Shown in pieces: positions 3,104 through 62,431 of a DNA stretch of 64,000 bases. Each line of letters opens with the position of its first letter. Within the stretch, counting starts at the first letter, position 1. The stretch comes from a virus. Lineage: Duplodnaviria; Caudoviricetes. The DNA lies in IMG/VR virus record IMGVR_UViG_3300027760_000553, positions 35,583-99,582 of that record, one strand, 5' to 3'. Position numbers and translations under genes: made by a program. A model generated the notes under the pieces. It was not told where the DNA came from. It made no database searches and was given only the letters and a program-made list of their open reading frames with translations.

Positions 3104-3126
3104 TTTATTCTCCCCTTTCCTATATA

Positions 3127-10134: not shown

Positions 10135-10191
10135 CGATCCTGCGACATCCGAATTAACAGTTCGGCACTCTACCATCTGAGTTACACCCCA
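10119..10191 (-). tRNA. tRNA-Asn (anticodon GTT), 73 nt, CCA not encoded
   Basis: Cloverleaf: acceptor TGGGGTG/CACCTCA + G73; D arm ACTC/GAGT; anticodon arm CCGAA-CTGTTAA-TTCGG; T arm GCAGG-ATCGATG-CCTGC. Confidence 0.92.
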
Positions 10192-12319: not shown

Positions 12320-12549
12320 TATTTATCCTCTTTTCTTAGCGGGATTGTAATTAGCCAAATAATTGTTGTTGCCATTACAGCAATACCAACAATGTCTCTT
12401 GCTGATCCCGTCAAAGTTAACCATGCGATAAAGAAGCCAAGGAGGGTAAATGCCTGTGCAATTAATTCCATTCCTGCATCCTTAAACCATTTAACTAATC
12501 CTTTGAGCATTTTGCCTACTAGGTTGATGGCTTTATTGATTATTTTCAT
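12319..12549 (-). CDS. Small two-TM membrane protein
   Basis: AFTLLGFFIAWLTL and IVGIAVMATTIIWLITIPL helices; ATGA overlap with the PA14 gene. Confidence 0.7.
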   Translation of the reverse strand: MKIINKAINLVGKMLKGLVKWFKDAGMELIAQAFTLLGFFIAWLTLTGSARDIVGIAVMATTIIWLITIPLRKEDK

Positions 12550-14678
12550 TTGTTCCTCCTTATCATTGCCCCTGCAATTTGTGATGCAATGACCACTGGG
12601 ACAATTACTTCTTGTGCTTTTTCTCTCTGATCATCTGTCATGTCCATACCCAACTCAGAAAAATTGGATAGGAGTTCTAATGGATCCACAGCAAATACTG
12701 CTCCAAGTGGATCTGATAAAAATGCATCTGTTTGTACTTCTGTTACTGCATCTGCAAGTGTAAATGGCATTGGAGTATCTCCTGCCTCTGCTGCTTTATC
12801 ATTAAAGGAAACAAATGCAGCAGCAAGTGCTGGGTTAGATTTCATTTGATCTGCAACTTTTGCAATTTCTGATGCGGAAATGCCAAGGCTTTCAGCAACT
12901 TGTGTTTTTGCTTCTTGTGTTAAAGCCTTTAGTGTTTGACTAACTGCTGCTGTTTGCTCTGCAGAAAGTTTAACTAACTTATTATCCTTGCTTGTAAGGT
13001 TTGCAATAACACCAGATAAATCTTCTTTGTTTCCTGTGCCATTTTGTGGGATAAGTGCTGCCAACTCTGCATCCTTGATTACTGGATCAATGTTTTCTGA
13101 TGGCTTAAAGTCTGGCCTTGGAAGTGGCTTAGGTTCTGGTTTTGGCTCTACAGAAGGCTCTGGAGCAGGTTCTGGCTTTGGTTCAGGGTTTGGGGCAGGT
13201 GTAGGCTTAGGCTCTTCTGGCTTTGGCTTGTCTGTTGGTTCTGGTTTAGGTCCAGGCTCTTCTGGCTTTGGGCCTGGCTGTGTTGGCTTAGGACCTGGTT
13301 CTTCTGTAACAGTATTATTAGTTGGCTTAGGCTCAGGTTTATCTGTTGGTGGTGGTGAAGGCTTTGGTTTTTCTGGTTCAACTGTTGGCTTTGGTTCTGG
13401 TGTAGGCTGATTTGCTGCAGCATTGGCTGCTGCTTGAGCAATTGCTCTTTGAATTTCTCTTTGCGACTGCTTATCATAGTAACGCCATGCGTCATCAATT
13501 GCACTATTAACATCAAGTATCGCATTATTAAAATTAGATATAGCATTATTCTTTTCAGATAAAGCATCTTCTGTTTCGTTAACAGCGTTGTTATACTCAG
13601 ATGTCTTATTAGTTAAATCTTGATTATATGAGTTTAATGTTGCAACCTCTTGATTATAAATATTTAATTTATTATTATATTCTTGCTGTGCTGCATTCTT
13701 TACACTTAATGCTGCTTGATAATCTGCAGTCTGTGTTGTACTTGCTCCAGATCCAGAAGAAAATGTATCAAGATTACAACTAAAGTTTTGTCCCCACACT
13801 CTTGGATTTCCAGCATAGTCGCAACCTGCACCAGTCCAACCTAAACTGCCAGATGAATCATAGGGTATTCCCCATCCAAGATGATAAGATCCTGGTCCTC
13901 CACCGTTGTACCACCAAATCTCTACATCAAATGTTTTATCTGTGGTTACATCATATATTGGAGAGTATTGACTCCATGTTGTTCCCTGTTCCTTCCAGTT
14001 ATTAATGACAAGGTTTCCATCAATATACATCCTAAAACCATCATCTGTATATCCTGCAAATTTTGTTGATGTAAACCATGACGGTACTGTTATTTTTCCA
14101 GTAAATTTAACTATAAAGTTTTCATATCTATTACCACAAACTGGACGAGTCATGTAGTTTCCATTTAGTGTTCCACTACATAAGAATTGATCTGTGGCTG
14201 CAAGGTCATCAACCCTGATTAAACTATAAACATTGTATGATAAACCAGCACCACCAGCATTATTTAATGCTTGTTGGGCTGTTTGTAGATTAATATTGGC
14301 TACGCCAAGGGCATCATAGGCATTATTCTTATTTGTTAGGGCAGTGGCTACTGTTGCTGTTTGTCCATCTACATTAGACTGGGCAAGATTTTTTGCTTCC
14401 AGTGCTAGGGTTTCTACATCTACTGCATCATCATAATTTTTAATTGCTAGGTCTCTGACATCCCGTAGATTTTTAGCATACATAAACTTATTCTCTGCTA
14501 TATCAATTAGGTTTATTAGACCATCTTTATAGTCTAATTTATCTACTGCGCTATTGAGGTTTTCAATTTGTTTTGCTGCTACTGTTAAGGGATCGTCAGA
14601 GTGAGCATCTTGTGGGGATATTAATAGCCATCCAAAAGCCAATATTGACGCTATTATTATGCGTATTAATCTTTTAAT
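12546..14678 (-). CDS. Exported coiled-coil protein with a PA14 domain, Pro-rich linker and C-terminal membrane anchor; probable ATT start
   Basis: PA14 motifs F.VKFTG.I.VP, TDDGFRMYIDG, WYNGGG; PEPKP repeats; hydrophobic tail then RRNK; signal peptide complete only from ATT at 14678. Confidence 0.75.
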   Translation of the reverse strand: MKRLIRIIIASILAFGWLLISPQDAHSDDPLTVAAKQIENLNSAVDKLDYKDGLINLIDIAENKFMYAKNLRDVRDLAIKNYDDAVDVETLALEAKNLAQSNVDGQTATVATALTNKNNAYDALGVANINLQTAQQALNNAGGAGLSYNVYSLIRVDDLAATDQFLCSGTLNGNYMTRPVCGNRYENFIVKFTGKITVPSWFTSTKFAGYTDDGFRMYIDGNLVINNWKEQGTTWSQYSPIYDVTTDKTFDVEIWWYNGGGPGSYHLGWGIPYDSSGSLGWTGAGCDYAGNPRVWGQNFSCNLDTFSSGSGASTTQTADYQAALSVKNAAQQEYNNKLNIYNQEVATLNSYNQDLTNKTSEYNNAVNETEDALSEKNNAISNFNNAILDVNSAIDDAWRYYDKQSQREIQRAIAQAAANAAANQPTPEPKPTVEPEKPKPSPPPTDKPEPKPTNNTVTEEPGPKPTQPGPKPEEPGPKPEPTDKPKPEEPKPTPAPNPEPKPEPAPEPSVEPKPEPKPLPRPDFKPSENIDPVIKDAELAALIPQNGTGNKEDLSGVIANLTSKDNKLVKLSAEQTAAVSQTLKALTQEAKTQVAESLGISASEIAKVADQMKSNPALAAAFVSFNDKAAEAGDTPMPFTLADAVTEVQTDAFLSDPLGAVFAVDPLELLSNFSELGMDMTDDQREKAQEVIVPVVIASQIAGAMIRRNK
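13090..13410 (-). repeat. Low-complexity Pro/Glu/Lys tandem repeats (PEPKP/PGPKP) within the PA14 protein
   Basis: Repeated ggtt/ctgg/cttt units on the + strand. Confidence 0.85.
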
Positions 14679-38800: not shown

Positions 38801-39454
38801 CTATGCCTCTTCCAGGGTTACTGAGATATCCCAAAAATCATAATTACTTCCGCCACGCTTTTGTACGCTATAAGAAAAATCACTAAAAAACATTTCAACT
38901 AATTGATTATATTGTCCAAGATGTCCATAGTCTGTATCATCTTTTCCAAAATTTGAATATTTATCATATGCTAGATATACCCAAAAAGATCCCTGATGGT
39001 TTTCATACCAATCAAGTAGTTCAACTCCACCAGCACCACCATCAGAAGTATATTCTAAAGAGTTCTTTTCTTTTACTAATGCCTTTCCATTTGATGGATT
39101 AAATTCTGGAGCAAGTGCAAAAGATCTAGAAGGAAGCATACTCCAACTAGTAGAAATTGTCAACTTGTCTGCAACATGATAAGAACGCATTCTGCCATTA
39201 ATCATTCTTTCACGCTTTTCAATTCTGGTTGGTTTAAAATCAATCGGCTGTCTATTATCATCTGAAAGAATTAAAAATTGATTAAATGTGGATTCGTCTG
39301 TTTCTGATCCAGTTGTTGATCCAACCTCATAGCCATTTGGAACATAAACACCATTAACTAGTGTGCCAGAGTTTTCTGACCATAACATTGCTTGTGGTCT
39401 TTGATATTTTCTTCTACCAGACATATAGGCAGCAGCAGTTGGGTTAGTAGCCAT
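38801..39454 (-). CDS. Distal tail (Dit-like) minor tail protein
   Basis: Immediately after the tape measure; RMINGRMRS...K...SW; ends VTLEEA. Confidence 0.65.
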   Translation of the reverse strand: MATNPTAAAYMSGRRKYQRPQAMLWSENSGTLVNGVYVPNGYEVGSTTGSETDESTFNQFLILSDDNRQPIDFKPTRIEKRERMINGRMRSYHVADKLTISTSWSMLPSRSFALAPEFNPSNGKALVKEKNSLEYTSDGGAGGVELLDWYENHQGSFWVYLAYDKYSNFGKDDTDYGHLGQYNQLVEMFFSDFSYSVQKRGGSNYDFWDISVTLEEA

Positions 39455-42400
39455 TATAGTTTATTACCTCTTATCCTCATAGAATCAACCTGCTTAATCT
39501 TAGTCATTACTGTATTTGCAATATCGCTTGGACTTGCATCTGATCTAACATTAACTGTTAACTCATAATTATACACTGAAGAAGATGCATCTGATCCAGA
39601 ATTAATAGCCTTCATTTTATCAATGCCGTGTGTATCTACAGCATATTTACTCATTACAAATTCTCCTGGAGTAAGCATTGCTGGAATAATGTCTGTACCT
39701 ATTACTGGTCCACCTATAGCAAATCGTCTTGGCTTAATTAATCCACCAGAAGAGTCTCTTTCCCAAAACCAATTATTTAGTCTTGCTGAGGCTGCATCTG
39801 CTTTGGCTTGTGCATCTGCTGCTGCGTTTTCTGCTGCAGTACTTCCCTTTTCTCCATCTGAGCCTAAAGAATTATAAAAACCAAGAGAAGATCCGTTTCC
39901 GTCATCTTTACCTTGACCAACCTTTGAACTACTTGAACTACTTGATGAACTTGAACTTGAGCCACCACCAGTTGTAATAGTTGTTATATATCTTGTAATA
40001 TTTTCGGTTATGTTTCTCACTTCATCAATAATGCTTTTAATAGTAATCGAATCGGGAAGGGCATTAATTTTATCTACAATATTTGTCCAAGAACCAGAAG
40101 CACTTGCAGAGTCTTCCTCGATTGCCATCATTGCTTTAACGATATCTTCTTCTAGTGCAGTAGCCATTGCTTCTGCCTTAAGAACCATATCTTCAAAATC
40201 TTGTAGTGTTTTACCAGCAAGATCATCCATACTTGTTAGACTATCAAGAATAAGAAGTAATTCTGCTTCTTGGGAAGCAAGTTCTGCATCTTCTTTTTCT
40301 AATTTATCTAAAATACTTGTTTGCGATGTTAGTGCTGTATTAAGATCTGCAAGTTCTTTTTCATACTTAAGATTTATTGCATCAATTGCAGTTGATCTAT
40401 CTTTTTCATACTGCGTAATTTTTTCTTGTGATGTCTCAATTGCTTTAACAAGTTCAAGTCTCTTAGGGTCTGTTTCAATCTTATAAATTTCTTGGGATAT
40501 TTTATATTGTCTTTCAGCAATTTGATCCTTAGTCATTCCTGACTCTGAACCCTTAAGACCCTTTATCTGATTATCTCTTGCCTGTGTTAAAGCATTTGTA
40601 GTGTCTTCTGCATATGCTGCAGCATTTTGTGATCGCATTTCTTGAGCAGCCTTTGCTGCTGCTGAAATATCTCCCTGTGTAAGAGCATCTGCAAGACCCA
40701 ACTGTGTTTGTTGTTGAGCAATAAGTCTTTGATTTATTTGCTGGGTCTCATTTAAAGCCTTAATTCTTTCATCATAGACTTTGTTTATTTCTTCTTCTTG
40801 ATGATTGATTATAGCAAGATCATTGCTTAACTTGTTTGATTCTGTTTGTTTTTTATCAATTAAATCTGTAAACTCTTTTTTAAGTTTTGATTCATTTGCT
40901 TCAATAGAATCCTTTTCGGTATCAATTAATTTATTATAATATTTATTCTTATCTTCAATTGCCTTGTTCAATTCATCTTCTTTTGCAGAAATGTCTTTTT
41001 GTATTTGATTTGCTCTTGCTTGAACTAGGTTCATTTGGGATCCAAGGCCTTGACGAGCAACTTGAATTTGACTTAAACTCTTTCCGCCACCAGTTATTGC
41101 TGTGCCACCTGTTGCTTTTACAGCAGCCTGATATGCATTTTCTCCCATATTAGGATTTGCTTTTGTGCCATATTTTCTTAATTCAGAAATATTCATTTTT
41201 TCTCTTAGTCTTGCTTTAACACTAAGAACATTCTGTGCTGCAGCAGCACCTTGAGAAATTTTTTCTGGGACTGTTTGAGATGCAAAATTTATATATCCTT
41301 GAATCTTTGCATTCTTTTGAACATTATTAAGTCCATCTACAACATTCTGCAAACTTGCAGGTACCTTTTCAATTCCACTCTTATACATATCCATGGCAGC
41401 GATTGCAGCAGATAATTGATTTGGATCTTTAATCATATCAAGCAAAGCACCAGAAGATAACTTAGGAAGATCTGTTGTCTCCGTCATAAACTTAAGAAGT
41501 TCTCCAACTCTGCCCTTATCTGCCAATTCTTGTTTTGCAGACAACCCTTCTGAGACAATACCATTAATTCTTTCTCTAAGTTCTGCTTGTTTTGCAAGGA
41601 GAGTGTTTGTTTCAAATTCAGCATCGGTAATTCTGCCTGCAGCAAGTTCGGTTACATAGTATTCATCATTAAGAATATTCTGAAGTGTGTGGTTATCAAT
41701 AACAAACTTGTTGTTTGTTTTTGCAAGAGTTGCAATTCTTTCCATAACCTTAGCACGGTCTTTATCATTTGTTATTGATTTAAGTTGTGCTAAATTATAG
41801 TCACCGCCTACGGCTTTAGTTATTCCTGCTTGGGCTGCCTTGCCTGATTCAGATAAAACAACATCCCCAACCTTACCACCCTTAAGAACATTTTTAGGAT
41901 TAAATGGATCAACCACCTTGCCCTTATATGGACCGCTAGTTGCCTTTGTAGCAGTCCTCATATACTTGGCTAATTCTGCAGGATCACCAATCATAGAAGT
42001 TAGGAAATCAATAAACTGTTGGTTTGAACCCTTCTTAAGAAGTTGTTGCTGCATGCCATTAAATACATCACCAATTACACCCTTTACCTTTTTACCGTCT
42101 CCAACTGCTTTAAATAATTCTGCAATCCCCTTTGTGGCATCTAAAGATGCAAGCCTTACCTGCTTAAGTCTTGCAAGAATATCATTTATTGGGTCAGCCT
42201 TCTTTGAACCATTTTTTTGTTCCTGTTCAAGATTACTAGCAGCCTTAGACGCAATATCTTGTTTAACAACCTGCATTGTTCTTTCTGCTGCCATTCTTCC
42301 TTTTTCAGCATCAATCTGTGCTTTTGTAATTCTTCTTGCTCTTGGATTTTTGGTTTTTATACTTGTAATTGCTGCCTGATCATCAATCGTTGAATATATT

Positions 42401-45400
42401 GCAACGTATTCTTGAATTACAGTCTTCTTTGTTTCGTCTGGCAAGTTACCCCATTGATCCCAGATAGCAAGCAGGGCGGTCATATCTTTAGTTTTTGAAT
42501 TTCCATCAGTATTAACAAGAGCAATTGCCTCTTTAGTAATTGGGGTTGGCATTTTTTCAATTTTTTCAAGTTTTTCCTGAAGGTCTATTAGTTTTGTTTC
42601 AGCGTCTTCCGATTCAAAAAATGCCTCTAGGTTAATTTCCTTAGTATCCATCTTTTGCATAAGTGCAATTGTTGATGCAAGTTTGTCAAACTGTGCTGGA
42701 TCCTTTTTCATTAATGCAACAAAAATTTTTCTACTTGTTTTTGGACTTTTAAATGTTCCAAGTTGTAGAAGTAATTGTTGAACTTTTCCTGGGTCCTGCT
42801 TTGTGATTGCCAAATCTAGGTTTCTTTGGATTGCTGCTTGTCCCTTTGCATCTGTTCCAAACATATCAACCATTTGACTTAATGCGTCTGGACCGACAAT
42901 TCCACTTCCTGCTACAGCATTAATCTTTATCTCTAGATCTGTGTTTAACTTTTTGGTTTTTTCTGCAAGAACAACCGATGCCAACTCTTCTGGCCCACCC
43001 TTGTACTTGTCTAATAATTGTGTTCGTGATGCTGTTTTAAGTGCGCTTAGTCCTGGTGTGCTATTTTGTAGTGCACCAACAGCCTTACCTGCGTTATCTA
43101 ATATTGTTTGATTGTTTTTCTTAAAATCTTGTAAACCAGCATCTCTTTTTTCTTCTAATTTACGAATTTTACCTGTTATAACCTCTTGCTTTGAAAGTTC
43201 AGATGTTTGTAACTTTTGTTTTTGTAATATTGCTATCTGATCATCATAGTACTTAGCAAATGAATCTGCCTGAGATTGATTAAACTCAAAAGATTGAGCA
43301 AACGATGAACCTAATGCTGCTCCAATTTTTTCTGGTCCAGTTTCTGTAAACAGAGCAATGTAGTCATCAAAATAATTAGATATAGCCTCTTGAATATCAT
43401 CCTGAGACCCTACATCAAATATTGGAACTCCAGCAGAGGCATAATCTTCTGTGCTCATTGATGTGTTAGAAATTTGTTCTTGCACTAAATTCATTCTTAC
43501 AGTTAGTGGATCTTTAAGTAGATCTACACCACTTGGACCAATAAGTGAAATAATCTCACCACTTATCTGAGAGGTTACAGTTTGATTGTTTAAATTAATT
43601 CCAATTTGACTTGCAACTGAATGGGCTTGTTCTGCACTCATTATTCCATCTGAAACATAAGCAGCAAGTTGCAAAGATATTTTCTTAACAGCATTATTTC
43701 CACCAGTCACCATGTCTTTTGTAAATGACTCTACAATTGATTTACCAGTTTCTGACTCTACAAAGGTTGCACCAAACTGTTGCTTTCCTCTTTCAAATCC
43801 AGTTGTATATCTATCAGATACCGATGTAGATCTCTTTCGTGCATATAGTTCTGAAGCACCGACTTTTCCAGTAAGTTCTCCAATAGACTTCATTTTTTCA
43901 GTTGTTGCAGATGTTGCATCTGTAAATCTTGATATTTTTTCTGCTGCTGATCTATTGGCCTTTTCTGCAAGCAATACAGACCCAGCAAGAGCCAGTACAG
44001 CCGTTCCAGCAGCAACATATGGGTTAGTTAGCATTGGAGCCATACCAGCCAGTGCAGAGGCCCCAAATAGGCCTCCAGTGACCTTAGCGTCGGCCCCCAT
44101 CATCATTGCACCCATTGCAACTCCGCCTAGGGCTGCAGATGTTCCTCCAGAGTATCTTCCTACCTTTTCTTGACGAGCCATTTGCCTTTGTGCTCGCTCT
44201 TGCTTTGCTAGAGCCTTAGAATTTACAACTCTTTCAGAATCAATCTTTGACTGCTCACGCATTCGTAGCGCTTGTGCATTAGCATGTGCCTTTTCTCTTT
44301 CTGCAAGTATAAGCCTTCTTCTATATTGAGATAGTGCTTGATCTATTTCTTTTGCTGACAAGTTATTTCTTAACTTTAACAAACGTGCCTGCTCTTGCAT
44401 AGCATTTGTAATTCTTCCTTGTGCGTTCTTGCTTAATGGAGAATCTGTTCCAAGTCCTTTGAATCTTGGGTCACCTGCGTCACGTCTTACAGCAAATGCT
44501 CTTGCCTGAGATCTTGTTGCAGTTGGCTGCCCACCAGTTTTACTAGCGTTTGGAGTTCTTGTTTCTGTTCCTTTTCCAGTCACTCTGCCAGTTGCAACAG
44601 CAGAAGTGTTTTGTCCTGTGTAAGGTATAAATCTACCAGTCTTTGAATCAAAGTAATACTCAGACTTTCTAACTGTTTCTAGTGCGCCTCGTACTGGTCT
44701 ACCTTTATCATCAAGAACAGATGTATTCATAAACATCTTATTTTCATTCATTCTCTTAAACCAATTAGAGTCTGAAATTCTATCAGACATAATGTTGTCT
44801 GTAAGTCTTGCATTTATGTATGCACTAGAAGATTTACTTAAAAACGATAAGCCTTTTGCTTTAGATGGATCAACTGTCATTAAATCTCTTGCTTTTATTT
44901 CAAGTTCTGCAAGAGCCTTTACATGTTTTTGATTTTGTGGATCAAACGGATGGTTTTCTTCTCTAATAATTGACTGAATTGCAGACTGAAGATTTCTGTT
45001 TTGTGTGCCATCAATTGCAAGAGGGTTTCCATTTTTATTATTCCACTCTAATATTTTTTCAAATCTAGATTTATTTCCTGGGTCGTTTGTTTTAACAAAT
45101 TCATTTATAACTCTATAGTCTGGACCCATTTGACCAAGAGAATATTTTTCTGATTTTGATGCTGGTCTAGACTTTCCTGCTTGTGCATCCTCTAAACTAT
45201 CATACACTCTTACTGCTTGAGCGTGTGAAGCATCAAGTCTAAACATTTTATCAACTGATTCCATTGCAGATTTTCTTACTAATGGAGAGTTAGACTTTAG
45301 GTCTTTTGCTAATTGCGTTTCATTTCCTGCTCCGTCTTTCATATTAGCAAGGAAGTCTGTATACTTTCTAATTGTTTTATCTGACTTAACTCCGCCTGGA

Positions 45401-48400
45401 TTTGCTGCTGCTACTTTTATTTCATCCCAAACTTTTTTTGCTTTTGGATTATTTGCTCCAATATCTCCACCACGCTTTGACTGTCCACCAGAGGTTACAT
45501 TACTTAAAAACTTACTAATATTAAATAGGTTTGATTTTACATACTTTCCAGTTTGTGCATCAGGTGCAATACCGAATCTGTAGTTAAATCTTTCTTGCAT
45601 TCTTTCAAGATTAACTCCATTTGTTCCACCCATGTTTGTCCAAAATGTTTTACTGTTTGGATCATAAATCATTTTTTCCATTAGGCTTTGTCTAAACGCT
45701 GGACCAGTAGACTTCTTCCATCTATCTTTAAATGTTCCATCTAGGTTTGAAGACTCTACTTGCTTATCTGCCCAATCAAAAAACTTTTGCATTTCAACTT
45801 GTGACTGTGATCTTTGTGATACTGAAAGTTCTGGAATAAATCCTGCCATTAATTTTTTAACTGGTGAGCCAGCAGCAGCATGTATTTTTTGGAATGAAGA
45901 CCAATCTGTTTTTTGACCAGCCTCTAGTCGTGCAATCATTGCACTGTAAGGAGCAGCATCTGCAGGAGATAGGTTCATTCCAGCAACAGTTTTTTTAAGT
46001 TTTGGTAGCACCTTTGCAATCTCTGCGCTAATTGCAGAGTTGTACTCTTGTGGTGTCATCTTTTTTGCTATGTCTGCAGTAGATAAAGCAAAATCTTTTC
46101 TTGCTCCACCCTTAACTCCAAGAAGATTAATCATTGCCTGATCTTTCATTGAAGGCATTGCGGATTGAATATCTCTAAATCCAGATGCTCTACTAAATAC
46201 TCCTGCTGGGCCAACGTCTGCTAACGTATTTCCAAAAACATTAGACTTAGACAAATCTTTATCTCCACGAAGAAGAGATGCAACAAGTTGAGTAACCATC
46301 TGCTTCTTTGTAAACTTACCACTTGCTTCTGCTAACTTAGGATCGTATGGTGATTCAAGTACAATTAACTTTCTCTTACCAGTTGCATCTGTTGGGTCTA
46401 ACATTGTCTTGATTGTTTGATTTGGTGCTTTTAATCCGTGTACATCTCTTGCAATTATTGTTGCACGTTGCTCTGCTAATGCTGAGGTTGCATCTACTGC
46501 AGGCTTAACAAATACTACTTCTCCATTTGGTTTTCTATAAATTCCACCAACGTTTGGAATAGGAAAACTTCTTCCAGAGGTTCCTTGAAGCAGTGTTCCA
46601 AAATCTGTTGGGGGAACTTTTCCAAATTGGCTCTTTGTAACTGATTCTGCAATGCGGTCTGCTATTTGTCTTGACTGTGTTACTTGGCCAATAGATTTTG
46701 GCATTCCGACAAACTTTGCTCCTGATTGTAATTCATCAGGCTTTGCATGAAATGATGGTCTTGCTGGTATCTTTCCTGCCATATATCCAGGAGTTTTCCC
46801 TTCCATCATTGCATGTAGGAATCCAATATTTTTTGCAGTTACATCTGCTGGTATAACTGCTTCTCCTGGAGCAAGGAATGCTGGCTGTATATCCCCTGCA
46901 CCTTTTGGACCAGGTACTTGCAAAACTCCTTCTGCATATCGTCTAACTGGTCTACCTTGTCCGCCAGGTAATTTTGCAACTGCTGCACCAGCACCTGGTG
47001 ATGCAAATAGTCCAGGGGAAGATGTTGCAAGGGCTCTGGCTTGTGAGGCTGCATTTGCATATGAGTTTGCTAATTTTTGAAGTGCAACATTTTCAACATT
47101 AAATACTTGAATAAGTCTTTCATGAGATCCGTGTAGAGCATTTGATGATGCAACATTCTCAATTTCTTGCTGTGTTAGATAGTCAAATCCGCCACCAAGC
47201 ATTTTATTTTGTCCATTAAGTTTTGCAATTCCACCTCTGATGGTTGCAAACAATTTAATTAGGTTTGCAAGACCATTAGCAAGCAAACCAAATGTCATTA
47301 AAAATATTGGACCAATTCCAGCAACCACTGCTGTAAGTATTGTTACAAACTTTTTAGTTCCATCAGATAGATCATTAAACTTTTCAAACAGTTTACCAAT
47401 AAACTTAACAACTGGTGTTAATGCTTCTAGAAATTGTTTTCCTATTGGCATAATAGTTTGCTTGAATTGTTCTACTGCTGCTTGAAACTTAACTCCAACG
47501 GCATCTTCAATCTTGCCCATTTCTCGCTCAGAGATAATTGCTAACTCTTCAAGTGAAGCACCCGATAGTTGCAGTGCTCTTGAGGCTTGGCTTCCTTCTT
47601 TTACTACGTTTTGAAATAATGTTGATATTCTTGAAAACTGAAACTTACCAAATAATTGCTCAATTGCTCTTGCACGGTTTAGTGGATCTAACTCATCCAG
47701 TGCTCTTGCAAATCCAACAACAGTGCCCTTTAGATCCCCTTTATTTGCTTCAACAACACCCTTGATATTAATTCCCATTTCAGCAAGCATCTCTGAAGTT
47801 TTCTTTGTTGGGTTAATCATAGAAGCAAGACCAGACTTTAGAGCATTTGCACCTTCTGATGCATTAATTCCACCTTCTTTCATTGCAGTCATGAAAAAGG
47901 CTAGGTCTTCTACATTTCCACCAAGTTGCTTTACAACTGGTGCTGCTTTAGGAATTGCAATTGTTAAATCTTCAATAGAAAGGACTGTTTGGTTTTCAAC
48001 TGCGTTAAGGAAATCAATTTTCTTTGCAAGGTCTTCTGAAGAAATTCCAAAAGCATTTTGTAAAGATATAGTTGTTTCAAGCGCTTGCTGCTGTTCAACT
48101 TGACCAAGGACTGCAAGTTTGTTGGCTTGTTTTACCTGTGCATCTAATGCTGTGCCTGAAAAACCTGCTGCTGCAGCGGTTGCTGCCATATCCATTGTAT
48201 CTTTGACAGCAATACCAAACTTGGTATATTCCATACCAATTCGTTTAATATTTTCAACTGCGATGTCTGTTGTTCTACTATCAGTAAAAGCATCTCCATA
48301 TACACGTTTGAACTTTACGGTTGCTGCTTCCATCTCTTTAAATGCCCGTGCAGCATATGAACCAAGCATTCCAAGTGGAATAGTAAGTCCAACCATCAAC

Positions 48401-49002
48401 TGACGACCAGCCCATTGAGTATTCTTACCAAAGTTTAGAAGTTGTGTTGATCCTTGCCTTAGTAATTGATTTAAGAATTGCTGTCTTTGTGCAGCATATT
48501 GAATCCTTGTTCCGAGTTCAGTAAATTGTCCATTTGCCATAGTTAAAGATTTTGGCATTATTTTTATTGCATCTACAAAGCCACCGTTGGCTTTTTGCAA
48601 TTGAATGTATTGAGACTGTAAAGCCTTTACTCTATCTCTACGTGCACGATTAAGTATTTCTCTTTCCTGTGCAAACATACTCGTAAGAGTCTTTGTGTTT
48701 GCAGTTGCAGCAGCAGCCGTGTATCTAAAATACTGACCAAGGCTTAACTGATTTTTTTCAAGTGCTGTTGTGAAGGCTTGTGTACTAGTTGCTACTTTTA
48801 CCTGAGATGCAGAAAATTTTCCAGTCGCATTAATTGACTGAATTAGTTGTGCATTTAATCCCTTTTGTGCATTAGAGGCAGCAAGGTTTCCTTCTGCAAG
48901 GCTTTGATGAAACCTACTTAGTCCAGACTGTAAAGTTCTAAGTTGTGCTAAGGCGTCAGCCGTATTAAAATTTATGCCTATATTAGCATTTACGTCTGAC
49001 AA
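39454..49002 (-). CDS. Tape measure protein (3182 aa) with inserted enzyme-like domains
   Basis: TP901-type core (AM.EGGI.ASEGANALKS, IEQLFG), hydrophobic segments, coiled coils; follows the tail chaperones; TTG start. Confidence 0.92.
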   Translation of the reverse strand: MSDVNANIGINFNTADALAQLRTLQSGLSRFHQSLAEGNLAASNAQKGLNAQLIQSINATGKFSASQVKVATSTQAFTTALEKNQLSLGQYFRYTAAAATANTKTLTSMFAQEREILNRARRDRVKALQSQYIQLQKANGGFVDAIKIMPKSLTMANGQFTELGTRIQYAAQRQQFLNQLLRQGSTQLLNFGKNTQWAGRQLMVGLTIPLGMLGSYAARAFKEMEAATVKFKRVYGDAFTDSRTTDIAVENIKRIGMEYTKFGIAVKDTMDMAATAAAAGFSGTALDAQVKQANKLAVLGQVEQQQALETTISLQNAFGISSEDLAKKIDFLNAVENQTVLSIEDLTIAIPKAAPVVKQLGGNVEDLAFFMTAMKEGGINASEGANALKSGLASMINPTKKTSEMLAEMGINIKGVVEANKGDLKGTVVGFARALDELDPLNRARAIEQLFGKFQFSRISTLFQNVVKEGSQASRALQLSGASLEELAIISEREMGKIEDAVGVKFQAAVEQFKQTIMPIGKQFLEALTPVVKFIGKLFEKFNDLSDGTKKFVTILTAVVAGIGPIFLMTFGLLANGLANLIKLFATIRGGIAKLNGQNKMLGGGFDYLTQQEIENVASSNALHGSHERLIQVFNVENVALQKLANSYANAASQARALATSSPGLFASPGAGAAVAKLPGGQGRPVRRYAEGVLQVPGPKGAGDIQPAFLAPGEAVIPADVTAKNIGFLHAMMEGKTPGYMAGKIPARPSFHAKPDELQSGAKFVGMPKSIGQVTQSRQIADRIAESVTKSQFGKVPPTDFGTLLQGTSGRSFPIPNVGGIYRKPNGEVVFVKPAVDATSALAEQRATIIARDVHGLKAPNQTIKTMLDPTDATGKRKLIVLESPYDPKLAEASGKFTKKQMVTQLVASLLRGDKDLSKSNVFGNTLADVGPAGVFSRASGFRDIQSAMPSMKDQAMINLLGVKGGARKDFALSTADIAKKMTPQEYNSAISAEIAKVLPKLKKTVAGMNLSPADAAPYSAMIARLEAGQKTDWSSFQKIHAAAGSPVKKLMAGFIPELSVSQRSQSQVEMQKFFDWADKQVESSNLDGTFKDRWKKSTGPAFRQSLMEKMIYDPNSKTFWTNMGGTNGVNLERMQERFNYRFGIAPDAQTGKYVKSNLFNISKFLSNVTSGGQSKRGGDIGANNPKAKKVWDEIKVAAANPGGVKSDKTIRKYTDFLANMKDGAGNETQLAKDLKSNSPLVRKSAMESVDKMFRLDASHAQAVRVYDSLEDAQAGKSRPASKSEKYSLGQMGPDYRVINEFVKTNDPGNKSRFEKILEWNNKNGNPLAIDGTQNRNLQSAIQSIIREENHPFDPQNQKHVKALAELEIKARDLMTVDPSKAKGLSFLSKSSSAYINARLTDNIMSDRISDSNWFKRMNENKMFMNTSVLDDKGRPVRGALETVRKSEYYFDSKTGRFIPYTGQNTSAVATGRVTGKGTETRTPNASKTGGQPTATRSQARAFAVRRDAGDPRFKGLGTDSPLSKNAQGRITNAMQEQARLLKLRNNLSAKEIDQALSQYRRRLILAEREKAHANAQALRMREQSKIDSERVVNSKALAKQERAQRQMARQEKVGRYSGGTSAALGGVAMGAMMMGADAKVTGGLFGASALAGMAPMLTNPYVAAGTAVLALAGSVLLAEKANRSAAEKISRFTDATSATTEKMKSIGELTGKVGASELYARKRSTSVSDRYTTGFERGKQQFGATFVESETGKSIVESFTKDMVTGGNNAVKKISLQLAAYVSDGIMSAEQAHSVASQIGINLNNQTVTSQISGEIISLIGPSGVDLLKDPLTVRMNLVQEQISNTSMSTEDYASAGVPIFDVGSQDDIQEAISNYFDDYIALFTETGPEKIGAALGSSFAQSFEFNQSQADSFAKYYDDQIAILQKQKLQTSELSKQEVITGKIRKLEEKRDAGLQDFKKNNQTILDNAGKAVGALQNSTPGLSALKTASRTQLLDKYKGGPEELASVVLAEKTKKLNTDLEIKINAVAGSGIVGPDALSQMVDMFGTDAKGQAAIQRNLDLAITKQDPGKVQQLLLQLGTFKSPKTSRKIFVALMKKDPAQFDKLASTIALMQKMDTKEINLEAFFESEDAETKLIDLQEKLEKIEKMPTPITKEAIALVNTDGNSKTKDMTALLAIWDQWGNLPDETKKTVIQEYVAIYSTIDDQAAITSIKTKNPRARRITKAQIDAEKGRMAAERTMQVVKQDIASKAASNLEQEQKNGSKKADPINDILARLKQVRLASLDATKGIAELFKAVGDGKKVKGVIGDVFNGMQQQLLKKGSNQQFIDFLTSMIGDPAELAKYMRTATKATSGPYKGKVVDPFNPKNVLKGGKVGDVVLSESGKAAQAGITKAVGGDYNLAQLKSITNDKDRAKVMERIATLAKTNNKFVIDNHTLQNILNDEYYVTELAAGRITDAEFETNTLLAKQAELRERINGIVSEGLSAKQELADKGRVGELLKFMTETTDLPKLSSGALLDMIKDPNQLSAAIAAMDMYKSGIEKVPASLQNVVDGLNNVQKNAKIQGYINFASQTVPEKISQGAAAAQNVLSVKARLREKMNISELRKYGTKANPNMGENAYQAAVKATGGTAITGGGKSLSQIQVARQGLGSQMNLVQARANQIQKDISAKEDELNKAIEDKNKYYNKLIDTEKDSIEANESKLKKEFTDLIDKKQTESNKLSNDLAIINHQEEEINKVYDERIKALNETQQINQRLIAQQQTQLGLADALTQGDISAAAKAAQEMRSQNAAAYAEDTTNALTQARDNQIKGLKGSESGMTKDQIAERQYKISQEIYKIETDPKRLELVKAIETSQEKITQYEKDRSTAIDAINLKYEKELADLNTALTSQTSILDKLEKEDAELASQEAELLLILDSLTSMDDLAGKTLQDFEDMVLKAEAMATALEEDIVKAMMAIEEDSASASGSWTNIVDKINALPDSITIKSIIDEVRNITENITRYITTITTGGGSSSSSSSSSSSSKVGQGKDDGNGSSLGFYNSLGSDGEKGSTAAENAAADAQAKADAASARLNNWFWERDSSGGLIKPRRFAIGGPVIGTDIIPAMLTPGEFVMSKYAVDTHGIDKMKAINSGSDASSSVYNYELTVNVRSDASPSDIANTVMTKIKQVDSMRIRGNKL

Positions 49003-49025: not shown

Positions 49026-49349
49026 TTACTTGCTGATTGATGCCATCAAGTTGTTACTTGTAGCAGAATCGCTTCCTGATGCAGCCTCGATGATTTCGTA
49101 GACTGTTGGAAGATCCAAAAGATCCTCTAGTGCTTCTTTGCTTTCTGAAAGTTCTGGTTTATACTGCTTCATTGCAATTAAGACGCAATCAAGTAGAACG
49201 TCCATAGATTTATCATTGTCATCTGCAACAAGTGCTAGATCCCCAAATCTTTTTACAAACGGACGTAGTAGTGAAATTTTTAGTGGTCGAACATTTAGTG
49301 TTGTGCCATCTATCAGTGTAACTGTTTTGCTATTTGCTTTTTCAGCCAT
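49026..49349 (-). CDS. Tail assembly chaperone, short (G-like)
   Basis: Just upstream of the tape measure; TLIDG....PLKI..LR.F; AGGAGG RBS. Confidence 0.75.
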   Translation of the reverse strand: MAEKANSKTVTLIDGTTLNVRPLKISLLRPFVKRFGDLALVADDNDKSMDVLLDCVLIAMKQYKPELSESKEALEDLLDLPTVYEIIEAASGSDSATSNNLMASISK

Positions 49350-49398: not shown

Positions 49399-50082
49399 TT
49401 AGTCAATTTTTTCGTAAGTTAGGCCCATTCCAATTCCAAATCCAGCCTTTTGTGCATTGACTCCTTGCAGTGCCAAAATATCACTTGAGTTTCTTGCTTC
49501 CCCATTGCTATAAACTCTAGCCTTTAGTTCTTCCCATTCATTTTTTTTCCCAGACTGTTTGTCTAGGTCAACACCCTGCATTGCTGCAAGGAATTTTTTT
49601 TCTGCATAGTCTAATTCTCTTTTGATTGAAAGAGTTGACATTATTTCTGGCATAGACATAGAGCATTCAAGTTCTTCGTAGTCTTTCCAAATGCCAAGCA
49701 GAAACGCCTCTGCTTCAAGTTTTGCCAAGTCTAGTGTTTCCCAAGTTGATCCACTATCTGTTGCTTGTTTTTTTACTGGCTCTTCGGATTTTTCATTTAC
49801 TTTAATTCCCGCTGCAATATCTAAAAGATGATAGATGTCTTTTAATGTAAAACTATCCTCGACTAGTTCTTTTGATAACGAAATTTTTGGGTAATACTGT
49901 TTCATACATATTCGAGCACACTCAACTAAAGCATCGATTGCACCATCATCATCTTTTGCTGATTTGACATACTCAAAAGCAACCATAAACTGTCTTAGAT
50001 ATTTTATTTTTAATGGTGTAATAAACAACTCTGTGCCATCTATAAGAGTTAGGTAGTCGCTTTCATATACTTCTGTAGCCAT
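49399..50082 (-). CDS. Tail assembly chaperone, long (G-T fusion-like)
   Basis: N-terminal half is clearly paralogous to 49026..49349; extra C-terminal domain WKDYEELE..MS.PE. Confidence 0.75.
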   Translation of the reverse strand: MATEVYESDYLTLIDGTELFITPLKIKYLRQFMVAFEYVKSAKDDDGAIDALVECARICMKQYYPKISLSKELVEDSFTLKDIYHLLDIAAGIKVNEKSEEPVKKQATDSGSTWETLDLAKLEAEAFLLGIWKDYEELECSMSMPEIMSTLSIKRELDYAEKKFLAAMQGVDLDKQSGKKNEWEELKARVYSNGEARNSSDILALQGVNAQKAGFGIGMGLTYEKID

Positions 50083-58696: not shown

Positions 58697-61600
58697 TTAT
58701 ACTGGGTTTGATGTTTGAGACTGCCACACAATATCTGTATAAAGTTCATATTGATATGAGTTTAACCTAAATGTTCTTGTATCGTCTACAATTATTTTAT
58801 TTGTACCAACATAACTCTTATAGACATCAGAAGGATCTACTCCATAGTAGGACTTTGTTGATAAAACAAGTACTCCATTCCAAACATATGCTGAATTCCA
58901 GTAGTCCCACTCTAACTCTAAAGGACCCAGATACTTGACCTTAAACCAAGGTCTTTCTGTAATATTTTGAACTTCCTGCAAGTTTGTAGACTTATAATGA
59001 GAAACAAGATTAACAAGAAGTGGACCATTAATCTTAATTGATCCAGCGTAGTTATCAAAGTTAACAATACTGGAAAATGATACCCCCAGCATTCCCCATT
59101 CTCTTATAGTTATGTTTGGCTCTTTTACAAGATTGCCATTCCAATAAAACCCAATACCGTTTTCAATTTGTCCAGTTCTTGCATTAACAGCATATATTTT
59201 TGCTCTTTTACCATCTGGATGATTTGCCACCATATAAAACTTTATAAGATCATTTTTGCCCTCAACCTCAAAAATTTGTGTTGGAGCATATGGGAAAAAG
59301 TCTTGATCATATCTAATTGCTGCCTGCATAGCCATAACTTTATAATTAGAAGACTTATTTGGATTTATTTGAATTGATAGTCCACGATTTATTAATGGGT
59401 CATACGAACCTTTTACCTGTATTCCAGAATTTTTTGTAAGGTATAAATATGGAGAACTACCCTTATAAATTGTGTATGGATTTGGCTTTTTATAATCATA
59501 GTAAATACCAGTTTTTGTATATGGATAAATCTGAACACCAAACCTGCTTCCAATTGGATTTGGAGCCACATCATTATAAGCCTGTGATGCTAGTTGCAAA
59601 CTTTTAACTCTAACTGGATTATTAAGAATTCCACGCACTTTAAAATTTAAATGAACAACTACCGCAAGATCATTAAAATTAGTTCCTCTTGGTGGATATA
59701 ATAACATTCCATCAACTACTTCATATTTAGTGTTTATAAAATTATCATATATTGGATTGTTGTTATCATCATAACCTAAAAGATATGTTCCTGGCTCAAC
59801 AATTCCATTTTGCAATGGTGACTCTATATTTGTAAAATAAGAGTCTTTAGCATTTGCACCTGTTGAGACATACTGAAAACTGACATAAGATTTTACTAAT
59901 GAGTTTGAGGTATCATACTTATATGTTTTTGAAGATCTATTTTTTAAATCTGAATAATCTATATAACCAGTGAAAAGATGATTGTCAAGAGATTCGTAAG
60001 TTCTCTGAATTGGATTCTGATATTCAGAATTAAGTTCATCATATGTCCAAGAACCAACCTGAGACTCTTCTACAAACTTTGATGGTGCTGGATAATTTAT
60101 ATTAAACTGCATAAAATCTAGATCATAGTAAGATTCATTTTTTGCATCTGTAACATATTTTGCAAAATATGACAATGGTATGTGATCTTCCCAATAACCA
60201 TCTATATCTATATCTAATGCAAAAGTATCAAAGTAGTTATTTGGGCTTAAAGTATAACTTGCTATATGATTTATTAATTTTTGAGTTGGATATGAGTTAA
60301 TATTTCCACCATCTAAAATATAATCCCAGAAATATGAACTTGCACCAACATACTGACCAGCATCATAGTCAATGTATTGATTATAAGTATTAAACACATT
60401 TTCAAAATTAGTTGGTGTTCCAAAATCATTGAAGCACTCAGAAATAAAAGAATAATTTCTTTCGGTTGCAAAACCGATCTTATATATGTTTCCTAAAAAC
60501 ATTTTAGAAAGTGTTGTATCTCCACCTACATATAATTTAAGACCTGATCTATTTCCGAAGAAACTAGCAACATCTTGTCCATAATGTGAACAAAATGTAT
60601 TAATATCCATACCCGAAATAAACTCTTCACCAATATTTACTGAAACAGTTTCATATATAAACTTTTCTCCAGAAGATTTAACAATCTTGTATTCTAACTC
60701 CAAAGTAGTTTGTAGTTCAATAACAAAAGAGTTTCCAGTAATCTGGTCATCAACCTTAAACAATAATTGTGGGGATGACGGTGTAGCCAAAACTTTAAAC
60801 ACTCCATAAAAAGATCTAATTGGAGTATTTGTAACATCTAAACTATCAAATAAAATATATCCGCTTGTAGAGTTCCAGTCAGCATTTGGCCTTAATTTAA
60901 ATAACATGCTTGATTCATTTTGTATATTTTTGCATGCTGCATACCACTGTTCAGTTGTTTTATTATTAAAAAATATCGTTGGCAAATTGTATTCTGGAAG
61001 AGATAGCACATTATTTGATGTAACTAGATTATCTATAGATGCTTGAGACCAACGACCAATATCTGGATAAGAGTAATTATTTGAATAATTTGAAAATGGA
61101 TAGTCAATAAAAAGAGAAGTTCCACTATACGATGCATTAATATTTTCTGGTACCTCAACGCCCTGACCGTAAACAAACCTTCGTTTTGCAACAATTGATG
61201 GAACCTGATAAGGATAAATTGCAACACAGTCTACTTCAATTGGAGATACATCTTCGTATGCATAAAATCCAATCCAGTCTTGATTTTTACCTTCAGAATT
61301 ATATTTATCTGGTAAAGCAAGTTCTGAAGTTATCATGTTTAATGAAATTACCTGCTCTCCATTAATAAGAAGGTTTGCCGAGTTATTTGTTAATCTAACA
61401 TGAACAATCATTGGCCTTACCCATTCACCAATATAGTGAGATCCATAATAATTATCAATCTTTAAAATTATGAAAGGGCCATCTACATAAATTCCATCCA
61501 AAGATGAGATTGGTCCACAGATTCTTTTCTTAACACTTGTATCTGAATTAATTCTGAGCCACATCTCTAGCGTTTGTTCTTTAAATTTACCACCCTCATT

Positions 61601-62431
61601 TAAAAAACCATTTCCAGGAATTATTAAAGATGGAAGATCTCCATTTTCTTTTAATATTGTTGTACTTGTAGATCCATAAACTAAAGGAATCCCAGAATTT
61701 TTTGCAACAAGTGCATTGTCAGAGACCATATAGTATCCAGGGGAATCTGACAAACCATAAGACCTTGCCTCAATTGCATATGATGAATCAATTGCTATAT
61801 CCGAAGGAACTAAAACTTTTTGAGCACCTAAAGATGTTGAATTAAACTCTTCTGACCATTGACCAAGAGTTATTCCATTAACAAGAAATTCATAATCATT
61901 TTGTGAAATAGAACCACTAATATACTTTATCTTCAACACAATTCTAAAAGTTGTATTTTTATTTGGAATCTCAAAAGTTTCTGAGACAAACATCCATTTT
62001 CCATAAATAGATGTATTATAATTTTTTAAATTTTGAATTATTTCACCACTTAGTGGATCGTAGTACTCATACCCTATTTCGATTCCAGCAATATAAGAAC
62101 TTAATGAATTTATATAACCACCAATAGAAAATGTAGACATGTATGGATTTAGTGTTGTAAAATTACTTAAGTTGTCACTTATGCAAACTATTTCACCAAA
62201 ATCTTGAGTGCTTAACTCTCCAGTAAGTTTAGTAATTGAACTATCTGTAAAAGGCTCATCGTATACGGAGTCAAACTCTTGCGAAGACCCACCAGTTACT
62301 GACCAATTGAAAACAGATCTTTCTTCTTCATTAATCAAAGAAATATAGTCTGCTTTATCATCCAATGCCCACAAAACCGTTGGGTGTTCGGCAAACACTT
62401 TTTCTGCATATAGATTTGATGGAATAGACAT
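58697..62431 (-). CDS. Large LamG/concanavalin-A-like domain virion protein
   Basis: P..LWALDD, TLEMWLRIN, H......ANLLINGEQV, DCVAIY; beta-rich, 1244 aa. Confidence 0.7.
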   Translation of the reverse strand: MSIPSNLYAEKVFAEHPTVLWALDDKADYISLINEEERSVFNWSVTGGSSQEFDSVYDEPFTDSSITKLTGELSTQDFGEIVCISDNLSNFTTLNPYMSTFSIGGYINSLSSYIAGIEIGYEYYDPLSGEIIQNLKNYNTSIYGKWMFVSETFEIPNKNTTFRIVLKIKYISGSISQNDYEFLVNGITLGQWSEEFNSTSLGAQKVLVPSDIAIDSSYAIEARSYGLSDSPGYYMVSDNALVAKNSGIPLVYGSTSTTILKENGDLPSLIIPGNGFLNEGGKFKEQTLEMWLRINSDTSVKKRICGPISSLDGIYVDGPFIILKIDNYYGSHYIGEWVRPMIVHVRLTNNSANLLINGEQVISLNMITSELALPDKYNSEGKNQDWIGFYAYEDVSPIEVDCVAIYPYQVPSIVAKRRFVYGQGVEVPENINASYSGTSLFIDYPFSNYSNNYSYPDIGRWSQASIDNLVTSNNVLSLPEYNLPTIFFNNKTTEQWYAACKNIQNESSMLFKLRPNADWNSTSGYILFDSLDVTNTPIRSFYGVFKVLATPSSPQLLFKVDDQITGNSFVIELQTTLELEYKIVKSSGEKFIYETVSVNIGEEFISGMDINTFCSHYGQDVASFFGNRSGLKLYVGGDTTLSKMFLGNIYKIGFATERNYSFISECFNDFGTPTNFENVFNTYNQYIDYDAGQYVGASSYFWDYILDGGNINSYPTQKLINHIASYTLSPNNYFDTFALDIDIDGYWEDHIPLSYFAKYVTDAKNESYYDLDFMQFNINYPAPSKFVEESQVGSWTYDELNSEYQNPIQRTYESLDNHLFTGYIDYSDLKNRSSKTYKYDTSNSLVKSYVSFQYVSTGANAKDSYFTNIESPLQNGIVEPGTYLLGYDDNNNPIYDNFINTKYEVVDGMLLYPPRGTNFNDLAVVVHLNFKVRGILNNPVRVKSLQLASQAYNDVAPNPIGSRFGVQIYPYTKTGIYYDYKKPNPYTIYKGSSPYLYLTKNSGIQVKGSYDPLINRGLSIQINPNKSSNYKVMAMQAAIRYDQDFFPYAPTQIFEVEGKNDLIKFYMVANHPDGKRAKIYAVNARTGQIENGIGFYWNGNLVKEPNITIREWGMLGVSFSSIVNFDNYAGSIKINGPLLVNLVSHYKSTNLQEVQNITERPWFKVKYLGPLELEWDYWNSAYVWNGVLVLSTKSYYGVDPSDVYKSYVGTNKIIVDDTRTFRLNSYQYELYTDIVWQSQTSNPV

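Follow-up and report, generated by a model that had tools for sequence, protein, structure and literature searches.

What is the segment of about 300 residues that lies inside the tape measure protein (TMP) of the virus record IMGVR_UViG_3300027760_000553, and what use could a phage make of it? We analysed a window, meaning the whole stretch of 64,000 nucleotides (positions 35,583 to 99,582), which forms the final 64 kb of this 99,582-base viral metagenome record (Duplodnaviria; Caudoviricetes; estimated completeness of the record, 90%). The G+C content of the window is about 35%, and every long open reading frame (ORF) is located on the minus strand. A first-pass annotation, made from the sequence alone, had claimed that the segment is a HipA/PI4K-like kinase domain which breaks the helical pattern of the TMP. 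Taking all results together, we give a narrow preference to the proposal that it belongs to a new atypical kinase family, carried as accessory TMP cargo and acting at the cytoplasmic face during DNA entry.

The structure of the domain was predicted with AlphaFold2 (AF2) on a 41-sequence alignment, and residue i of the model corresponds to TMP amino acid (aa) 759+i. The annotation depended on a bilobal kinase fold, and such a fold was predicted, with a mean predicted local distance difference test score (pLDDT) of 95.1 and a predicted template modelling score of 0.91; pLDDT exceeded 90 from model residue ~11 to ~285. The helical pattern is indeed broken, because in the model an N-lobe sheet of five strands precedes a C-lobe made of helices. 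The N-lobe starts with an N-terminal helix, a strand (44-48), a loop with G51 and S53, and a second strand (61-64). The next strand (70-76) ends in K74 (K833 of the TMP), and the helix at 79-94 holds E85 (E844). Two strands (104-109 and 119-126) and a helix (140-153) then lead to a loop with D155, D157 and N162 (D914, D916 and N921). After this catalytic loop come a short hairpin, D170-x-G172 (D929-x-G931) and five helices (193-200, 211-221, 225-249, 254-271 and 276-284). Thus, the Lys, Glu, Asp, Asn and Asp that the annotation had picked out were correctly assigned, since they fit the kinase elements of the model one for one.

The model was compared with 48,161 representative chains using VIA-align, and the kinase-fold status of the matches was judged from their titles. 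Fifteen chains reached Z ≥ 8, and among the matches listed all 50 of 50 had a kinase fold, with alignments spanning model residues 14-289. The best match was CotH (5jda_A; Z 11.5, root-mean-square deviation 4.0, 215 aligned residues), followed by MavQ (10.0), CtkA (9.8), PI4KIIalpha (9.8), Fam20C (9.2) and HipA (8.8), and lower down by PI4KIIIbeta (8.7), Vps34 (8.4), the actin-fragmin kinase (8.4) and HipT (8.3). A second VIA comparison, limited to the top 1,000 chains from Foldseek, gave CotH 11.7, CtkA 10.9, PI4KIIalpha 10.0, LepB 9.4, Fam20C 9.4 and HipA 9.1, and the matches listed were again all of the kinase fold; over both lists, Z was 8.1-9.1 for HipA and 8.4-8.6 for Vps34. Foldseek against the PDB found six matches at E ≤ 1e-3 (best, CtkA, E 2.5e-4), and 44 of the 45 matches listed were kinases or pseudokinases, the exception being 9a68_A with a probability of 0.25. 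These Z values are of moderate size. We accept the kinase fold because the lists are made up of kinases, most of the domain is covered, and invariant residues occupy the catalytic positions. On the predicted model, TMP residues ~763-1050 almost certainly have a protein-kinase-like (PKL) fold.

Homologues were searched for with phmmer, using TMP aa 720-1080 as the query against 1.84 billion cluster representatives (50% identity). The kinase region had 167 matches at E ≤ 1e-3, 140 of them at E ≤ 1e-30. The best 150 of the 167 matches yielded 129 near-complete domains; the other 21, mostly fragments, were dropped as beginning past query position 80 or ending short of position 305. The conservation alignment contained 130 domain rows with a mean pairwise identity of 0.44 (minimum 0.20). 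Eight residues were invariant in all 130 domains (G810, S812, G820, K833, E844, Q905, N921 and D929), and three were nearly so (D916 in 129, G931 in 127 and D914 in 123). The pentad K833/E844/D916/N921/D929, on whose conservation the annotation also hung, was complete in 129 of 130 domains, and the spacing from N921 to D929 was exactly 7 residues in every one. All the motifs that the annotation had named (GRSF...GGIY, VFVKP, ALAEQRA, GDKDLSKSN and LADVG) were found at the positions given there when recomputed from the coordinates. In eight pairs of close relatives, the ratio of nonsynonymous to synonymous substitution rates (dN/dS) was 0.064-0.129 for the domain, against 0.057-0.087 for the TMP core and 0.087-0.182 for the variable region downstream. 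The homologue counts, the invariant residues and the low dN/dS go well beyond chance and indicate that the domain is real, conserved and under purifying selection.

We then considered to which family the domain belongs. It matched no family in Pfam or NCBIfam at E ≤ 10, and a sequence search of the PDB returned only ethanol dehydrogenases (E 0.13). The best match in a profile search of the PDB was a leucine-rich-repeat protein (E 0.0026), which was judged to be noise from short, repeated matches to the catalytic loop. Pfam searches with each of 41 members gave scattered matches only, all with E > 0.01; HipA_2 appeared in 1 of the 41, at a non-significant E of 0.017. At E ≤ 10, the virus record contained no match to the HipA family PF20613, and hhalign of the domain with Escherichia coli HipA gave no match (probability 0.28). 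The nearest named clusters in the ESM Atlas were LepB_N, HipA_2 and PI3_PI4_kinase at 0.91, which we rate as a lead only, and a second query (homologue P0097) gave nothing useful there.

The label HipA/PI4K-like can therefore be kept in part: this atypical group is among the nearest structures, but sequence membership in either the HipA or the PI3K/PI4K family was not found. Membership in the HipA family was rejected, as there was no profile or sequence match and the domain sits inside a TMP, in the tail module, without an antitoxin partner; its structural likeness to HipA is no higher than that to CotH, CtkA or PI4KII. PI3K/PI4K membership was rejected as well, given the lack of a Pfam match and a loop, D-L-S-K-S-N, without Arg-His, and the structural likeness is that seen above (Z 9.8-10.0 for PI4KIIalpha, 8.7 for PI4KIIIbeta, 8.4-8.6 for Vps34). 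The CotH kinase family was likewise set aside, with no Pfam family at E ≤ 10, though CotH is the best structural neighbour. The catalytic loop motif of PI3K/PI4K is DRHxxN, and the annotation had likened the loop to it. The His is absent, as it had noted, and the loop resembles those of the (H)xDLxxxN type equally well. Asp and Asn are five residues apart in this loop, a spacing shared with HipA and PI3K and no less with classical, RIO/Bud32 and aminoglycoside kinases.

Judging from the model, we file the domain as a new, previously unclassified family in the atypical branch of the PKL superfamily (the CotH/CtkA/HipA/PI4K/LepB/Fam20 structural type). The bilobal fold is present, and the Lys/Glu/Asp..Asn/DxG set stands on the right elements of the model. 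CotH (5jd9/5jda), CtkA (3akk), HipA/HipT, the type II and III PI 4-kinases, LepB, MavQ and Fam20C have the same bilobal fold and order of elements. They share with the TMP domain the Lys of strand 3, the Glu of helix C, the D..N loop, the D-x-G and the helical C-lobe, as well as the lack of a classical activation segment or APE region. Their Z values lie between 8 and 11.7 over 190-218 aligned residues, at an identity of just 6-16%. The TMP domain is unlike them in its DKDLSKSN loop, in the 7-residue gap between Asn and Asp, and in being embedded in a structural protein of 3,182 aa.

The carrier of the domain is clearly a TMP. Pfam PhageMin_Tail matched aa 261-452 (E 1.8e-27), and all 10 of the 10 PHROG families that matched are annotated "tail length tape measure protein" (best E 5.1e-85). 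The homologues P0004 and P0095 can be aligned from residue 1 of the window TMP. The genes are arranged as in the structural module of a siphophage, in the order portal, protease, capsid protein, major tail protein with an Ig domain, two chaperone-like genes, TMP and minor tail proteins. The PhageMin_Tail core, the location between the tail chaperones and the distal tail proteins, the great length and a hydrophobic segment are all those of a TP901-type TMP. The nearest cultured relatives are the ~130-kb Streptomyces phages of the Stanwilliamsviridae, which have this gene order in common with the window and are identical to it at 48% for the portal, 45% for the capsid protein and 30% for the N-part of the TMP. 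One of them, Muntaha (NC_070786.1), has the same order from the protease to the minor tail proteins. Its TMP (2,088 aa) lacks the kinase domain, since hhalign of the domain profile gave no match there (probability 0.37).

The domain is part of a cassette with clear boundaries. The segment that the annotation had placed at 45860-46790 (TMP aa ~738-1048) coincides almost exactly with 311 in-frame codons (45850..46782). These are bounded by the direct repeat ATGGCAGGA...CCAG, coding for MAG[K/F]IP, namely MAGKIP at aa 741-746 and MAGFIP at aa 1052-1057. A pattern scan for related viral loci found 13, of which L011, L013 and L014 were read through. Nine of the 13 carry the domain at 52-98% identity, and L011-L014 were matched over 49 residues only. 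The TMPs of L011, L013 and L014 are 90-91% identical to aa 1-746 of the window and ~70% identical to aa 1040-2097, and between these two parts there is an in-frame gap. The kinase-less genes have a single MAGSIP at the junction (locus positions ~3001-3150). In the tree built from the N-part of the TMP, L002, L007 and the window form a group with the kinase-less loci (support 87/99, below the star threshold), and the kinase-bearing L004, L005 and L008-L010 fall outside this group. This topology points to a secondary loss of the cassette in L011-L014, with the caveat that TMP genes recombine.

Further evidence on the nature of the cassette came from homologue P0140, a metagenomic TMP of 4,468 aa. 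It contains PhageMin_Tail at aa 237-436, Peptidase_M23 at aa 2198-2291 (E 9.9e-23) and the kinase at aa 2829-3122, far from the usual site near aa 720. The presence or absence of the cassette, together with its occurrence beside Peptidase_M23 in P0140, indicates that the kinase behaves as an accessory cargo module of TMPs. By analogy with the muralytic domains that other TMPs carry, it may be regarded as in-frame TMP cargo.

In long homologues, a hydrophobic segment lies upstream of the kinase in 95 of 100, downstream of it in 92 of 100, and on both sides in 87 of 100. Another element of the architecture is the PGE-x-V motif, of a kind found near the C-ends of TMPs. The window TMP has two copies, exactly 2,400 residues apart. 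Among the homologues, the motif occurs at most 120 aa upstream of the kinase in 63 of 122 and within the last 150 aa in 75 of 109. Up to about residue 745, the protein looks like a short TMP that is complete in itself, with the kinase and another ~2,400 residues added behind it. Directly past the cassette, aa 1051-1500 form a region that is covered by only 4-12 of 150 homologues and that, searched alone, matched only P0093 (E 3e-21). It had no Pfam match, and its AF2 model (6-row alignment; mean pLDDT 55.5) was too poor for a fold search. It is possible that this region is another exchangeable module, for cargo or for targeting. Close to the C-end of the TMP, 12 serines stand in a row (aa 3015-3026; 39925..39960, minus strand); a 2026 paper (PMC13585406) reports a connection between homorepeats of TMPs and tail length. 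The coordinates of the features are given in Table 1.

Table 1. Features of the tape measure protein gene and its kinase-like domain in the window (positions are those of the window).
Feature	TMP residues (aa)	Coordinates	Strand	Basis or remark
Tape measure protein (TMP) gene		39454..49002	-	3,182 codons open, TTG start; ORF list
TP901-type TMP core (PhageMin_Tail)	261-452	47647..48222	-	Pfam
Hydrophobic segment 1, upstream of kinase	550-585	47248..47355	-	Kyte-Doolittle, sliding window 19, peak 2.12
First PGE-x-V motif copy	~697-745	46768..46914	-	Regular-expression match at aa 712
Kinase cassette, 311 codons in frame	741-1051	45850..46782	-	Direct repeat bounds, kinase-less relatives
Protein-kinase-like domain proper (predicted)	763-1050	45853..46716	-	Homology limits, AF2 pLDDT, fold-match span
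Gly-rich loop region G810-x-S812...G820-x-Y822 (GRSF...GGIY)	810-822	46537..46575	-	Between strands 1 and 2
K833, beta3 lysine (in VFVKP, aa 830-834, 46501..46515)	833	46504..46506	-	End of strand E70-76
E844, alphaC glutamate (in ALAEQRA, aa 841-847)	844	46471..46473	-	Within helix H79-94
Catalytic loop D914-K-D916-L-S-K-S-N921 (in GDKDLSKSN, aa 913-921, 46240..46266)	914-921	46240..46263	-	After helix H140-153
Metal-binding D929-V-G931, DFG equivalent (in LADVG, aa 927-931)	929-931	46210..46218	-	Alignment and model
Lineage-specific variable region, directly past cassette	1051-1500	44503..45852	-	Homologue coverage
Hydrophobic segment 2, downstream of kinase	1661-1681	43960..44022	-	Kyte-Doolittle scan
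Second, C-terminal PGE-x-V copy	~3097-3150	39553..39714	-	Regular-expression match at aa 3112

The distribution of the domain agrees with its being part of long proteins. Among the 129 near-complete homologues, 109 exceed 2,000 aa in length, and 59 of these 109 have the start of the domain at aa 700-799. Four of the 10 homologue clusters looked up are named TP901-family TMP by their source. No stand-alone kinase was seen: all 16 matches of 151-557 aa, a count that leaves out the "shorter" length class, sit on contigs of at most 6.6 kb and are thus fragments. A tblastn search with the window domain and a divergent member gave no match in 50,697 GenBank phage records. Since the family has 167 representatives and yet none among GenBank phage isolates, Pfam or NCBIfam, it is a blind spot of cultured-phage biology.

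A scan of a genome collection with patterns from close relatives found none, and a second scan found only two contigs of metagenome-assembled genomes (L016 and L017). They are binned as Bifidobacterium and Acidimicrobiaceae, both Actinomycetota, and have G+C contents of 43% and 38%. At 38-43% G+C, with ~35% in the window, they may be mis-binned phage contigs. The annotation had spoken of an actinobacterial membrane. The kinship with Streptomyces phages and the two contigs binned as Actinomycetota give a weak hint in that direction, but the low G+C contents of the window and of these contigs speak against it. One possibility is a host from among low-G+C Actinomycetota; another is faulty binning.

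What could such a domain do in a TMP? The annotation had proposed a kinase that is delivered by the virion and acts before phage gene expression on host proteins or on lipids such as phosphatidylinositol; its structural part is supported, and this functional part is plausible. We infer the catalytic activity, topology, timing and substrate of the TMP kinase. From its residues and its model, the domain is likely to be a catalytically active transferase, and we incline modestly to the view that it is delivered to the newly infected cell and acts there. TMPs leave the tail at infection and help to cross the cytoplasmic membrane. In the proposed mechanism, the TMP would be expelled from the tail at infection, and its hydrophobic segments at aa 550-585 and 1661-1681 would insert into the cytoplasmic membrane. 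The ~1,000 residues between them, that is, the kinase and the variable region, would reach the cytoplasmic side, where ATP is present, and refold. The kinase would then phosphorylate a host target at or near the site of DNA entry, ahead of any phage gene expression. A protein would be the most likely target, given that the best neighbours include CotH, CtkA, Fam20C and HipA; the head group of a lipid or sugar would be less likely.

Exposure of this loop to the cytoplasm is proposed because of the hydrophobic flanks, the ejection and membrane crossing of TMPs, and the TurboID labelling of the lambda TMP. PMC13190303 reports that a fusion of ManZ and TurboID labelled the TMP of lambda in the course of injection, so that a TMP can reach the cytoplasmic face of the inner membrane.

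A bolder version is rather doubtful. Here the TMP of long-tailed uncultured siphophages would be a syringe for a kinase that phosphorylates a host protein at the injection site within seconds, before expression of phage genes. The target could be, for example, a membrane-bound defence that attacks incoming DNA, and the variable region would be a swappable targeting or second effector module. If this were true, the kinase would be the first one delivered by a tail and would stand for a new class of counter-defence that acts before expression.

Several points weigh against the proposal of an active kinase delivered by the tail. The domain was recognised by none of the sequence libraries searched. 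Z values of 9-12 speak for a fold, not for a function, and unmatched models commonly reach a best Z of 7-8. The catalytic loop is atypical, with D-K-D where classical kinases have H-R-D and a gap of just 7 residues between N921 and D929, and homologue P0087 carries D916V, the sole break of the pentad among the 130 domains. Four related contigs (L011-L014; three distinct sequences) are cleanly without the cassette, so that tails can be assembled, and those lineages can infect, without it; an essential role is thus disfavoured. The lumen of a siphophage tail tube measures ~4 nm, and several copies of a folded domain of ~33 kDa should not fit into it. For this reason, the domain would be stored unfolded and would refold past ejection. 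There is no ATP outside the cytoplasm, and the cytoplasmic exposure of the loop is deduced solely from the two hydrophobic flanks. Activity, delivery and substrate are read from sequence and model.

The nature of the substrate leads to two other explanations. An active kinase might use a small molecule of the envelope, such as phosphatidylinositol, a polyprenol-linked precursor, or a cell-wall or lipopolysaccharide sugar, and so remodel the entry site for channel formation or DNA passage. Since the scores of MavQ, PI4K and LepB are just as good, a lipid or sugar as substrate has to be taken seriously as a rival, although we consider it improbable. The lipid-kinase neighbours (MavQ, Z 10.0; PI4KIIalpha, 9.8-10.0; LepB, 9.4; PI4KIIIbeta, 8.7; Vps34, 8.4-8.6) are joined by the sugar kinase WaaP (6.2) and by two phosphotransferases for small molecules, MPH-E (6.9) and APH(2'') (5.8). 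The domain also adjoins hydrophobic, presumably membrane-inserting segments, the nearest cultured relatives infect Streptomyces, and Actinomycetota make phosphatidylinositol. However, the protein kinases score as high or higher (CotH, 11.5-11.7; CtkA, up to 10.9; Fam20C, 9.2-9.4; HipA, 8.1-9.1), by sequence the domain lies outside PI3K/PI4K, and a G+C content of ~35% is not what cultured Actinomycetota show. A kinase-like fold could also perform another chemistry, for example AMPylation or glutamylation, which are known in the superfamily members SelO and SidJ. The fold alone leaves the reaction open, and the loop is atypical in its D-K-D and short hairpin. We regard this as very improbable nevertheless, given the canonical phosphotransfer motif set and, as a weaker argument, the lack of any such enzyme among the best 50 in either VIA list.

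Place and mode of action could differ as well. The kinase might work late in the producer cell, on host or phage proteins, on the TMP itself or on tail assembly factors, and its passage into the virion would be incidental. ATP and folding conditions are assured in that cytoplasm, a folded domain is hard to fit into the tail tube, and the cassette is not needed for making a TMP. What makes this explanation unlikely, slightly more so than the small-molecule substrate, is that no stand-alone form was found (the 16 short matches being fragments) and that there is no obvious reason for a fusion to the TMP in 167 cluster representatives, usually at the same site (59/109). In addition, the P0140 chain contains a true entry enzyme, Peptidase_M23. 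A somewhat smaller chance still is given to a nucleotide binder that is not a transferase for host targets, either an ATP sensor or switch that signals arrival in the cytoplasm and gates the channel or DNA release, or a means of TMP self-phosphorylation. HipA and HipT autophosphorylate a serine in the Gly-rich loop, S812 in the same loop is invariant here, and the domain lies between two hydrophobic segments of a channel-forming protein. But the catalytic Asp and Asn and the metal-binding Asp are kept in 129 of 130 domains, which is what a transferase needs beyond mere binding. Moreover, ejection is independent of such an ATP switch, because kinase-less relatives exist.

Coming back to the preferred reading, an accessory kinase that acts at the cytoplasmic face during DNA entry, the known systems are similar in part. 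The TMP of mycobacteriophage TM4 contains a peptidoglycan hydrolase motif (PMC1796659). In the literature searched, the enzyme domains of TMPs are cell-wall hydrolases. Such TMP hydrolases (that of TM4, and Peptidase_M23) are alike in being in-frame catalytic modules inside a TMP and non-essential for tail formation, but they act on the cell wall outside the cytoplasm and use no nucleotide. A kinase cargo requires access to the cytoplasm because a kinase needs ATP. We found no report of a kinase domain in a TMP in the full-text literature searched, which takes in few subscription journals.

Among viral structures in BFVD, 13 matched the domain at E ≤ 1e-3, and the best were large multidomain, virion-associated phage proteins. 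These are annotated as ADP-ribosyltransferase, portal or head-morphogenesis fusions, and phage PI3K/PI4K-like proteins also occur; the sources include Mycobacterium phage Onyinye and Gordonia phages GodonK and Sixama. A0A6J5PWC9, A0A6B9L6W7 and A0A4D6E245 are among the BFVD matches. A related fold thus appears to be virion cargo elsewhere, as far as structural likeness goes. The T7 protein kinase (gp0.7) is comparable with the TMP domain as a phage kinase, by function alone, and phosphorylates host proteins early in infection (cited in PMC5512222). It is the product of an early gene, expressed once the DNA has entered, and does not belong to the virion.

Closer in concept are the "polyvalent proteins" of phages and conjugative elements, in which Iyer et al. 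(2017, PMC5512222) described predicted kinases delivered with the invading DNA. As described in that paper, these kinases too are parts of giant multidomain proteins and were proposed to modify host proteins; the best BFVD matches of the TMP domain are large virion-associated proteins of this sort. The polyvalent kinase family has a Glu before strand 2, a Gln in the last N-lobe strand and a His-Asp insert, according to the same paper (PMC5512222). In that description the family is defined by the loss of the whole C-terminal subdomain, whereas the TMP domain keeps a C-lobe of five helices, so that the two are set apart by description. The carrier is also different, being a MuF or other polyvalent protein and not a TMP, and the term "tape measure" has 0 occurrences in PMC5512222.

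Both the kinase-like family and its carrier are new here; virion proteins that bring along an enzymatic cargo with a kinase-like fold are of an already known kind. A conserved, apparently competent kinase is a different TMP cargo from the known cell-wall hydrolases, and the phage tail probably delivers an enzyme of a kind so far undescribed for TMPs. If so, part of the TMP would reach the cytoplasm in a state able to refold and work, which would give a direct handle on the fate of the TMP past ejection and add to the phage effectors active before transcription. The natural kinase-less sister lineages offer a ready comparison for the kinase-bearing phages.

Some other genes of the window deserve mention, all of them on the minus strand. 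The two genes 5' of the TMP (49026..49349 and 49399..50082) both match phrog_10504 in their N-parts and look like paralogous chaperone-like genes, present in place of, or in addition to, the usual frameshifted pair. An ORF of 1,244 aa (58697..62431), immediately upstream of the portal gene, is without a Pfam or PHROG match; its product is perhaps a large protein that is associated with the head or is ejected. A PA14 domain (E 1.4e-6) occurs in a 698-aa protein (12546..14642), which may bind carbohydrates and serve in receptor recognition. The sole transfer RNA gene of the window is that for tRNA-Asn (GTT), at 10118..10191.

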